Source: a virus. Taken from it: a DNA stretch of 23,450 nucleotides. Location of the stretch: UHGV virus genome UHGV-0111899, one strand, 5' to 3'. Below are positions 9,642-13,253 of this stretch, piece after piece. The position numbers were made by a program, and so were the translations under genes. Each line of letters starts with the position of its first letter. The first letter of the stretch is position 1. The notes under the pieces were generated by a model that saw only the letters and a list, made by a program, of their open reading frames with translations, did not search any database and was not told the origin of the DNA.

Positions 9642-9807
9642 CTTCTTCCTCGTGCATCGAGCTATTCGAATCGCTCATCAGTTCTGCACAGCAGTGCTCA
9701 CACACGTGAACTTCCAGCACATGCAGCTTCTGACCGCAGTTAGCGCACGTTAAAGCCCGCTCGACGCTTTCTTTCTGGTATTGAATGGATTGGGATGGGC
9801 TAAGCAT
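9634..9807 (-). CDS. ninF: NinF (57 aa; below the ORF-track size cutoff)
   Basis: Manual minus-strand translation [58 protein letters not shown] matches recalled lambda NinF; its 3' end overlaps the ninG start as in lambda. Confidence 0.85.
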
Positions 9808-10168
9808 TATTGGCGTCCTGCATCATGAGAAAGACAATCATGGCGGCGCGGAGAACATTTTCATGCTCATGCTCACAAACAGGGTTGGCAGAAGCACCGT
9901 GCAAACCGCTTTCGTTCCAGTCCCAGAGAATGTTAACTCCGTTATCAGCAATAATCGGCCATGCGTCTGCTGGGTTTGCGCATGGGTTAAAGGATCCGCG
10001 CTCAACTTCTACTTCAACTGCGTCTCCGTTTACAATGTCTCCCTCAAATGAGACAAACACCATATCGCCATTCTCACCTTCCTTATAATCCGGTGATCCG
10101 TTATGAATGGCTTCGAATACCGCCACGTTGATTTCAAAATCACTTAACTGTGAATAATCCATTGTCAT
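9800..10168 (-). CDS. acidic hypothetical protein between ninE and ninF (P22 NinX-like position)
   Basis: About 120-aa Asp/Glu-rich ORF. ATG at 10168 overlaps the ninE stop (ATGA); a second ATG at 10162 has better SD spacing (GAGGA 7-8 nt upstream). Lambda has no gene at this position. Confidence 0.6.
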
Positions 10169-10341
10169 TTCCTCGCACGATTTCTTAGCCACCGGATATC
10201 CCACAGGTGAGCCGTGTAGTTGAAGGTTTTTACGTCAGATTCTTTTGGGATTGGCTTGCGTTTATTTCTGGAGCGTTTCGTTGGAAGGTATTTGCAGTTT
10301 TCGCAGATGATGTCGGTGATGCTTCGTCGCTGTCGTCTCAT
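10165..10341 (-). CDS. ninE: NinE
   Basis: Translation [58 protein letters not shown] matches recalled lambda NinE; ATG overlaps the upstream methyltransferase stop. Confidence 0.85.
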
Positions 10342-10865
10342 TCTGCCCTCCTGACGCCCTGCCCGATCGCCATCAATGCCGCTTTGGATACGGTAGTAAA
10401 CATCCGTCGAGGACTGATGAACGGTCGCCAAATCAGCAACATGGAACCTTTGCTGTTTCCCTTCTTCTCCAGCCCTGTCGATGGTTCGATAAAATTAATC
10501 CGTCCATCAGTAATGATGCGAACTTCGTCAATACTCTCCAGAGCCTTGCTGAACCATCCGACAGACATATCCTCTGGCACAAGCATCACTATCGTCTGTC
10601 TCTGTTGTATGCACTGCTCAGCGGCTTTTTCCACCCACGGCCTGATATTGCTGTACGGTGGGTTATTCCAGATTGCACCGTGGCTTATCCACTCAGAATT
10701 TAGCGCGTCGTCAGCCTCAGTTAGCCAGTGAGCGCACAGAGCGTTTTTGTCGCTCGCTGCTGAATCCAGCCAGAATCCAAACTCAATATCCAGCGCATCA
10801 AAAAGCCAGAGCGACGTTTGCCAGCAGTCCTTATCGTGTGCTGGCGTATTTGATTTGATAGTCAT
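10338..10865 (-). CDS. DNA N6-adenine methyltransferase (phage Dam-like; NPPY catalytic motif)
   Basis: About 175-aa ORF from the ATG at 10865 (overlapping the ninB stop); contains ...[20 protein letters not shown]..., the (D/N)PPY motif IV of amino-methyltransferases; occupies the lambda ninC/ninD position. Confidence 0.8.
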
Positions 10866-11302
10866 GCAGCCCGATCTCCCCATCGCGCTTTCCACTCCAG
10901 AGCCAGTCGCGCTTCGTCTGACCACTTAACGCCATGCTCTGTACCGAATGCCTGTATAAGCTCTAATAGCTCCGCAAATTCGCTTACACGCATCCTGCTG
11001 GTTGACTGGCCTATTACCACAAAGCCATTCCCGGCAAGGTTAGGAACAACGTCCTGCTGCTTTAATGCTGCGGTAAACACACACTTCCAGCTTTCTGCAT
11101 CCAGCCAGCGACCATGCCATTCAACCTGACGAGAGACGTCACCAAGGCAAGCCCAAAGCTTTCGATTCTGGTCTAAACTGCGGTTGCGTTCCTGAATGGT
11201 TACTACGATTGGTTTGGTTGGGTCTGGAAGAATTTGCTGTACCGCGTGAATAGCGTTTTGCTGATGTGCTGGAGATCGAATTTCAAAGGTTAGTTTTTTC
11301 AT
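10862..11302 (-). CDS. ninB: NinB (Orf recombination mediator)
   Basis: From the ATG at 11302, MKKLTFEIRSPAHQQNAIHAVQQILPDPTKPIVVTIQERNRSLDQNRKLW... matches recalled lambda NinB. Confidence 0.9.
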   Translation of the reverse strand: MKKLTFEIRSPAHQQNAIHAVQQILPDPTKPIVVTIQERNRSLDQNRKLWACLGDVSRQVEWHGRWLDAESWKCVFTAALKQQDVVPNLAGNGFVVIGQSTSRMRVSEFAELLELIQAFGTEHGVKWSDEARLALEWKARWGDRAA

Positions 11303-11666: not shown

Positions 11667-12364
11667 ACACTTGCTCCTTTCAGTCCGAACTTAGCTTTGA
11701 GTTCTGCGATCTTCGCCAGAGCCTGTGCACGATTTAGAGGTCTACCGCCCATGACAGGAAGTTGTTTTACTGGTTCAGGGATCGCCTCACCACGGTTAAT
11801 TCTCGCAGTCATATGGACAAGCTCATCTGCGGCCTTACGGCGTAATTCCGCATCAGTAAGCGCATTGGCCCGCATGTTCTGATACAGGCTGGTAACCAGC
11901 CAGTAGTGCGCGTTTGATTTCCACGGATAAGACTCCGCATCCGGATACAGGCCTCGCTTCCGGCAATACTCGTAAACCATATCAACCAGCTCGCTGACGT
12001 TTGGCAGTCCGGCGATAACGGATGCTTCTTCCCGGCACCATGCAACAAACTGCCCGGGTGATGGCAGAAATGGTCGATTCTGCCGACGGGCTACGCGCAT
12101 TCCTGCGTTAACCTGTTCCATTGTGGTGATCCCGTTTTCCCGGAAAGCCAGAACCCACTGGCGGCGGATTTCGTTCAGTTCGTTCTGGTCACGGTTAGCC
12201 AGACTCGCCGGGAAAGTTGCCAGTAACTGGCTGAACACACCGTTGATGATCTGCGCTACCTGCTGTACCTGCGGCTTTTCGTCGTACTGTTCCGGCATGT
12301 TGTTGGCGATCCTACGCATCTGCTCACGGTCAAAGTTAACCATCTGTGCGGCGATGTTTTTCAT
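11663..12364 (-). CDS. P: replication protein P (DnaB helicase loader)
   Basis: 233-aa translation MKNIAAQMVNFDREQMRRIANNMPEQYDEKPQVQQVAQIINGVF... matches recalled lambda P. Confidence 0.95.
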   Translation of the reverse strand: MKNIAAQMVNFDREQMRRIANNMPEQYDEKPQVQQVAQIINGVFSQLLATFPASLANRDQNELNEIRRQWVLAFRENGITTMEQVNAGMRVARRQNRPFLPSPGQFVAWCREEASVIAGLPNVSELVDMVYEYCRKRGLYPDAESYPWKSNAHYWLVTSLYQNMRANALTDAELRRKAADELVHMTARINRGEAIPEPVKQLPVMGGRPLNRAQALAKIAELKAKFGLKGASV

Positions 12365-13253
12365 AGATCCACCCCGTAAATCCAGTCTGTGTTTGTCAGG
12401 TCGAGTTTTGGTTTGCTGGCTGTCACGACTGCCTGTTGCTTGTTACGGTTGATTTCGAGCTGGGTCCACTTGTCGCGGAGTTTGGCCGGGCTAAGCACGT
12501 TACCGGACCAGAAGTTGTCCTGGCATGCCCAGCGGAACAGCACGCACATGTCGCGGTGGTTACGTCCGTCACGTTCACGCATCAGGCGGATATCGTTAGC
12601 CCACCCTGCAAAATTCGGTTTTCTGGCTGATGGCGCGATGGTCTTCACCATGTCAAACATCCACTCTGCGGCGGTCAGGTCTTCTGCTGTCCCCCACTTG
12701 CTGCCGCTCTGAATTGCAGCATCCGGTTTCACCACAGAAAGGTCGTTTTCTGGCTGGTCAGAGGATTCGCCAGAATTCTCTGACGAATAATCTTTTCTTT
12801 TGTAATAGTGTCTTTTGTGTCCCCCTGTTTTGAGGGATAGCAATCCCCCAATTTGAGGGATGTTTTATCCCTCGTTTTAGGGGATTTTCCCTCGTTTTGA
12901 GGGATGCACCATTCTGAGATGTTTTTGTTTGGTCCAAACATGCCGCCTTGCTGCTTGATAATATTCATTCTGACGAGTTCTAACTTGGCTTCATTGCACC
13001 GTTTAACAGGTAACTTTGTAATCTCGCTAAGTTGAGAATCGGTGATTCTGTCCATTGGTTTATTCCACCCATAGGTTTTACGCAGAATGGCAAGCAGCAC
13101 TTTAAACTGTCGCTTGGTCAGATCTGCGCCTGAATAAGCCTCAAGCAGCATATTTGATAGTCTGGCGTAACCATCATCGAGATCTGCCACATTACGCTCC
13201 TGTCCGGCAAAGTTACCTCGGCCGAAGTTGAGTATTTTTGCTGTATTTGTCAT
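12361..13253 (-). pseudogene. O: replication initiator O, disrupted by a frameshift (apparent 7-bp deletion within the ori A/T-rich tract)
   Basis: Two track ORFs in different frames, 12729..13253 (O N-terminal domain, 154 matching residues then a 20-aa out-of-frame tail) and 12361..12843 (O C-terminal domain, 145 residues); 154+145 = 299 = lambda O length. The locus spans 893 nt versus the 900 nt needed for an intact gene. Confidence 0.8.
12787..12906. repeat. ori-lambda: four ~19-bp O-binding iterons plus shortened A/T-rich segment
   Basis: Plus-strand iterons gtccccctgttttgaggga, tcccccaatttgagggat, atccctcgttttaggggat, ttccctcgttttgagggat at about 12819-12906; adjacent A/T-rich tract at 12787-12807 is shorter than recalled for lambda. 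Confidence 0.8.

Follow-up and report, generated by a model that had tools for sequence, protein, structure and literature searches.

In phage lambda's nin region, the stretch between ninB and ninE is occupied by ninC and ninD. Among the methyltransferases that bear the name Dam, the enzyme of E. coli itself is a protein of about 278 amino acids, and the one encoded by phage T1 is specific for GATC. The nin genes of lambda are listed in PMC8022706, and the tight packing of genes through ATGA overlaps is described there as typical of lambdoid nin regions. A further phage enzyme of this name, M.EcoVT2Dam, was cloned from phage VT-2 (Radlinska and Bujnicki 2001), and its reported target, as given in PMC6602927, is GATC; the cloning of the VT-2 dam gene by the same authors is also cited in PMC7556043. 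HP1 Dam is among the phage Dam-like enzymes listed in that article. Phages also carry adenine methyltransferases that are non-specific, and for these a broad protection against restriction has been proposed (PMC3299994, PMC7556043).

We analysed a gene of this kind in a window of 23,450 nucleotides, by which we mean the whole stretch of DNA presented as UHGV virus genome UHGV-0111899, and which as a whole corresponds to a lambda-like prophage. From 8.1 to 13.3 kb the window is made up of consecutive minus-strand genes, and within this block an intact open reading frame of 175 codons runs on the minus strand from the ATG at 10865-10863 to the TGA at 10340-10338 (Table 1). A previous reading of the DNA, made from its sequence only, had described here a methyltransferase with an NPPY motif, joined by ATGA overlaps to ninB and ninE at its two ends; its coordinates, the motif, both neighbours and both overlaps are exact by sequence, translation and Pfam, and the strand, which it had left unstated, is minus. 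The placement of the gene in the slot of ninC and ninD also holds, as it is flanked by NinB (PF05772) and NinE (PF05322). The NinB protein has 146 amino acids, the same length as its annotated homologue in a prophage of E. coli TUM14697, and Ren lies beyond it on that flank, with NinX (PF10765) being the gene after ninE on the other.

Table 1. Positions in the window of the methyltransferase (MTase) gene, its motifs and its junctions with the neighbouring genes.
Feature	Position	Strand	Basis or remark
Phage N6-adenine DNA methyltransferase CDS, 175 aa	10338..10865, stop codon included	minus	ORF and translation; PF05869, TIGR01712, phrog_111
NPPY, codons 68-71, catalytic motif IV of amino-methyltransferases	10653..10664	minus	translation
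W-Q-T-S, codons 15-18 (family motif W-x-T-P)	10812..10823	minus	Ser18 TCG at 10812-10814, against conserved Pro CCG
L-D-S-A-A-S, codons 33-38, probable equivalent of AdoMet-binding motif I	10752..10769	minus	alignment
ATGA overlap, ninB stop TGA / MTase start ATG	10862..10865	minus	plus strand reads tcat
ATGA overlap, MTase stop TGA / ninE start ATG	10338..10341	minus	plus strand reads tcat
ninB, orf-family recombination mediator, upstream neighbour of MTase	10862..11302	minus	PF05772, 7e-55
ninE, downstream neighbour of MTase	10165..10341	minus	PF05322, 3.8e-43, profile positions 1-58 of 58

Shine-Dalgarno-like sequences precede both of the starts involved, namely GGGGAG, 10 nt 5' of the methyltransferase ATG (10876-10881), and AGGAGG, 5 nt 5' of the ninE ATG (10347-10352), the latter within the 3' end of the methyltransferase gene. 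The two overlaps at the methyltransferase do not set it apart, since most junctions of the operon are built in this way: counting from O as far as the phosphatase gene, ATGA overlaps occur at 6 of the 10 consecutive junctions, the others being O/P, P/ren, ninG/ninH and ninE/ninX, this last one with the ATG that begins the Pfam match of NinX. The NinX-family reading frame (9800-10204, minus strand) is listed with a GTG start at 10204, and its Pfam match begins at residue 16; an alternative ATG at 10168-10166 makes an ATGA overlap with the ninE stop, and is probably the true start, giving a product of 122 amino acids.

The assignment of the protein to an N6-adenine methyltransferase family has strong support from profile searches, with scores well above the curated cutoffs. 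The Pfam scan matched PF05869, 'DNA N-6-adenine-methyltransferase (Dam)', at 7.2e-63 and 211.7 bits (cutoff 28.1) over positions 1-167 of the 169 in the profile, and the NCBIfam equivalog TIGR01712, 'phage N-6-adenine-methyltransferase', was matched at 1.7e-77 and 258.6 bits (cutoff 97.05) over its full length of 165 positions. The protein also matches phrog_111, 'DNA methyltransferase' (1.2e-85), and the 'orphan methyltransferase' models of PADLOC. That the enzyme is an orphan, as had been supposed from the sequence, is further borne out by its surroundings, with no nuclease gene alongside it and the flanks being NinB and NinE and then Ren and NinX, and the annotated relatives are the same in this respect. 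The label Dam-like fares in two ways: the presumed target, GATC, agrees with it, but homology to E. coli Dam does not, since in the Pfam scan of the protein at E<=0.01 no family besides PF05869 was matched, that of E. coli Dam included. Our preferred reading, which we hold with good confidence, is that the gene encodes a small orphan AdoMet-dependent DNA N6-adenine methyltransferase of the family of the HP1, T1 and VT2 'Dam' enzymes, which most likely acts on GATC and likely completes the GATC methylation of the phage DNA.

The nearest characterised relative gives the best indication of the target. In phage VT2-Sakai, the product of orf32 (NP_050531.1), which also lies between ninB and ninE, is identical to the window protein at 170 of 174 residues (98%), and the window protein departs from it by P18S, V60I, V92I, V115I and the last residue. 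By elimination we take orf32 to be M.EcoVT2Dam, because the annotation of the entire VT2-Sakai record names no other methyltransferase; a scan of three reading frames on the int side of that phage (orf3, orf4 and orf5) returned a match to DUF551 only for orf4 and no match for orf3 and orf5. Given the near-identity to the VT2-Sakai enzyme, the likeliest target of the window enzyme is the adenine in GATC, with the caution that Dam-like enzymes can show off-target methylation when they are overproduced (PMC10810198).

The gene is already known and is routinely annotated, and the exact window protein is present in public databases under the name 'phage N-6-adenine-methyltransferase'. It is 98.9% identical to the protein of mEp043 and 97.7% identical to those of HK97, HK140 and Stx phages, and at the protein level a homologue was found in 1874 phage records. 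The DNA from ninE through the methyltransferase gene to ninB is 96-97% identical to that of many sequenced lambdoid phages, with matches in 427 phage records, and the clusters nearest to this allele comprise thousands of member sequences. Annotations show the order ninB, methyltransferase, ninE in HK97, mEp043, HK140, many Stx phages and prophages of E. coli. The gene carries little weight as a discovery, its annotated copies numbering in the hundreds among phage records and occurring in genomes of E. coli and Salmonella as well. Among complete genomes, the closest relative of the window lies in the chromosome of E. coli TUM14697 (2899505-2924810; 81% coverage, 95% identity; our locus L003), where PGAP names the methyltransferase 'phage N-6-adenine-methyltransferase'. 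The integrase of that prophage adjoins a frameshifted torS, which suggests integration at or in torS, and the NinX gene is missing there between ninE and ninF.

The anatomy of the protein follows that of the family. In an alignment of the window protein with 26 homologues of 58-97% identity (alignment A1), 48 columns are invariant and all of them are retained by the window protein; among them are T17, L33-D34-x-A36, N68-x-P70-Y71 and a series of positions in the C-terminal half, P69 and A37 being nearly invariant, and NPPY is found in 117 of the 120 homologues that were retrieved. Read in linear order, the protein presents the W-x-T-P position and after it a helix, L-D-x-A-A, an acidic T-E-x-D-D, NPPY and three strand-helix units, the secondary structure being that of the predicted model. 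From this order L-D-S-A-A-S would be the probable equivalent of AdoMet motif I, and general knowledge of methyltransferase motifs leads us to infer an arrangement of the gamma class of amino-methyltransferases, in a compressed form and without a separate recognition domain. The AlphaFold model of the protein has moderate confidence (pLDDT 74.9), and its matches in a Foldseek search of the PDB are weak (best E 6e-3, TM 0.3-0.4). The top matches are mostly N6-adenine or amino-methyltransferases (TrmM, CamA, METTL4, the EcoR124I methylase subunit, PglX), which would be weakly consistent with the family, and the classification was made without them. Sequence and profile searches detected no solved structure of the PF05869 family, and the fold search gave no convincing one. 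The family is very widespread, and the window protein, at 175 residues, has no evident target-recognition domain.

What the enzyme may do for the phage can be outlined from lambda biology. Co-oriented with O, P and ren as well as with the remaining nin genes, the methyltransferase gene would be transcribed with them in lytic growth only, and its translation is linked to that of ninB and ninE by the ATGA overlaps. The likely effect of the enzyme is completion of the GATC methylation of phage DNA that replicates fast and that limiting host Dam would leave under-methylated. MutH and SeqA act on GATC sites that are un-methylated or hemi-methylated, and fully methylated progeny DNA would be a poor substrate for both; it would also be expected to withstand nucleases that cleave at or across GATC and are sensitive to methylation. 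Under-methylation at Dam sites is described for the virion DNA of lambda and P22 (PMC3299994, PMC8022706). Because the Dam enzyme of an E. coli host already marks GATC, the phage enzyme probably only raises the extent of this methylation. The counter-defence role proposed by the sequence-only reading is a plausible assumption, and weaker than usual, the host carrying the same modification. According to PMC7556043, what phage Dam enzymes do biologically has yet to be settled, and a 2025 anti-restriction screen (PMC12373910) makes no mention of this gene. Claims of anti-restriction that are based on its annotation exceed the evidence.

An alternative on the level of function is that the main role of the enzyme lies in the physiology of the phage and its host and not in counter-defence, through escape from MutH repair during Red/Orf recombination, through avoidance of SeqA or through promoters that are sensitive to Dam. 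The marking of GATC by the host, which leaves no new kind of protection for the phage enzyme to confer, speaks for such a role, as does the location of the gene between the recombination genes ninB and ninG. GATC is moreover depleted in the whole window, with 68 sites observed against 121 expected under a Markov model of second order (ratio 0.56), and among the 16 palindromic tetramers only CTAG is lower (0.21); this suggests that the site is under selection in the phage and matters to it, without indicating the pressure responsible. A physiological role would also sit well with the statement in PMC7556043 on the function of these enzymes, and with PamA, a phage-encoded methyltransferase of S. 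aureus that a review describes as Dam-like and as altering host gene expression (PMC13076061). For this locus these are candidate roles, which are nonetheless compatible with anti-restriction and do not rule it out; we regard a mainly physiological role as possible but doubtful. The narrower proposal, that the true job of the nin-region enzyme is the shielding of replicating or recombining phage DNA from MutH or SeqA and not from restriction, seems to us improbable; if it were true, the natural allele with serine at position 18, discussed below, could serve in tests as a separation-of-function or null variant. On the level of target, a relaxed or different specificity, or a substrate other than DNA, could be imagined for a protein of 175 amino acids with no obvious separate target-recognition domain, and other phage annotations of the Dam-like kind have proved misleading (PMC10810198, PMC3299994, PMC7556043). 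These precedents, however, belong to other families. L24 of phiP27, which PMC7556043 names as a homologue of a methyltransferase of relaxed specificity and whose own non-specificity is thus indirect, belongs to PF01555 (N6_N4_Mtase, a type of about 350 amino acids), is twice the size of the window protein and is unrelated to it, the BLASTP match between them having E 0.14 over 12 residues. The methyltransferase of Stx phages that was reassigned to 16S rRNA (PMC10810198) is of the MT-A70 type with a DPPW motif, and its gene is gp5 (gene 5 in the phage map of that paper), not one of the nin region. Set against the MT-A70 type (M.EcoGV / M.EcoPA8orf6770P, on the int side), the window protein has NPPY and not DPPW, no match to MT-A70, and a gene in the nin region. 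M.EcoGIX, with an SAY motif, is plasmid-borne and specific for single strands, and has no relevance to the window gene. Considering as well the reported GATC specificity of the VT2 enzyme, which is nearly identical to that of the window, and the place of HP1 Dam among the Dam-like enzymes of phages, we judge a departure from GATC methylation to be very unlikely.

Another alternative concerns not the family but this particular copy, which could be a weakened or dead allele in a decaying prophage, with the replacement of Pro18 by serine impairing cofactor binding or folding. The window protein lacks the canonical W-x-T-P, a departure of a single residue in a match that is otherwise full-length, and it scores 6.7 bits below VT2-Sakai orf32 in Pfam. 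Proline is found at this position in 26 of 26 aligned homologues and in 109 of 109 retrieved homologues that cover it, and it is kept even at 34-37% identity, in HP1 Dam (W-A-T-P) and T1 Dam (W-S-T-P). Of a 31-mer with the variant base at its centre, the serine version occurs in none of 5426 complete E. coli genomes, and the proline version in 231. The sequence-only reading made no mention of the substitution. Contigs with the exact allele also have in common a lesion in the replication gene O (12361-13253 in the window, minus strand), where a deletion of 7 bp at about 12795-12805, by which one AAAAGAA unit is lost in an A-rich stretch directly after the four ori iterons, splits the gene into an N-terminal reading frame of 174 amino acids (12729-13253) and a C-terminal one of 123 amino acids (12361-12843). 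The same split is present in three metagenome contigs that carry the exact methyltransferase allele (L008, L009 and L012), and E. coli TUM14697 has an intact O of 299 amino acids. The serine allele thus marks one prophage lineage, which may be replication-defective. Against a loss of function stands an open reading frame that is otherwise intact and runs to full length, and in which NPPY and every other invariant residue are kept. The exact protein also recurs, with constant gene order, on at least 23 contigs whose sources are several independent metagenomes and isolates, so the allele is not a sequencing error. A change from proline to serine may also be tolerated, the role of W-x-T-P being itself deduced, and P18S could mean early decay as well as a change that the enzyme tolerates. 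We therefore entertain a weakened or dead enzyme only tentatively. Because P18S falls at a position conserved in the family, it lowers our confidence in the activity of this copy and not in its descent; the activity may be reduced, is less certain than membership of the family would imply, and should not be assumed for this allele.

Our preferred reading, a small orphan enzyme that most likely methylates GATC, places the window gene at different distances from the systems described so far. The phiP27 L24 / M.EcoGI-GII type and the Hia5 group have in common with it that they are likewise orphan m6A methyltransferases of enterobacterial prophages. With E. coli Dam, an enzyme of the alpha class (MethyltransfD12), the window protein presumably has both the target, adenine N6 in GATC, and the chemistry in common, but it is much smaller and no sequence relationship between the two is detectable by Pfam scan, so that, judged from the sequences, a common target would be convergence and not membership of one family. 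HP1 Dam (orf13) and T1 Dam (ST20), with respective identities of 37% and 34% to the window protein, are the other characterised members of PF05869 and, like it, orphan phage enzymes with the motifs W-x-T-P, LD-x-A-A and NPPY, the first of them being W-Q-T-S in the window; T1 Dam differs by an N-terminal extension of 45 residues and an insertion, and the genomic contexts of the HP1 and T1 dam genes are unlike that of the window gene. The closest system is formed by M.EcoVT2Dam together with its counterparts in 933W-type Stx phages, HK97, mEp043 and HK140, which like the window protein have 175 amino acids, are 97-99% identical to it, and have in common with it the position between ninB and ninE, the overlaps and the Pfam family, the window protein being set apart from VT2-Sakai orf32 by P18S at a residue that the family conserves.
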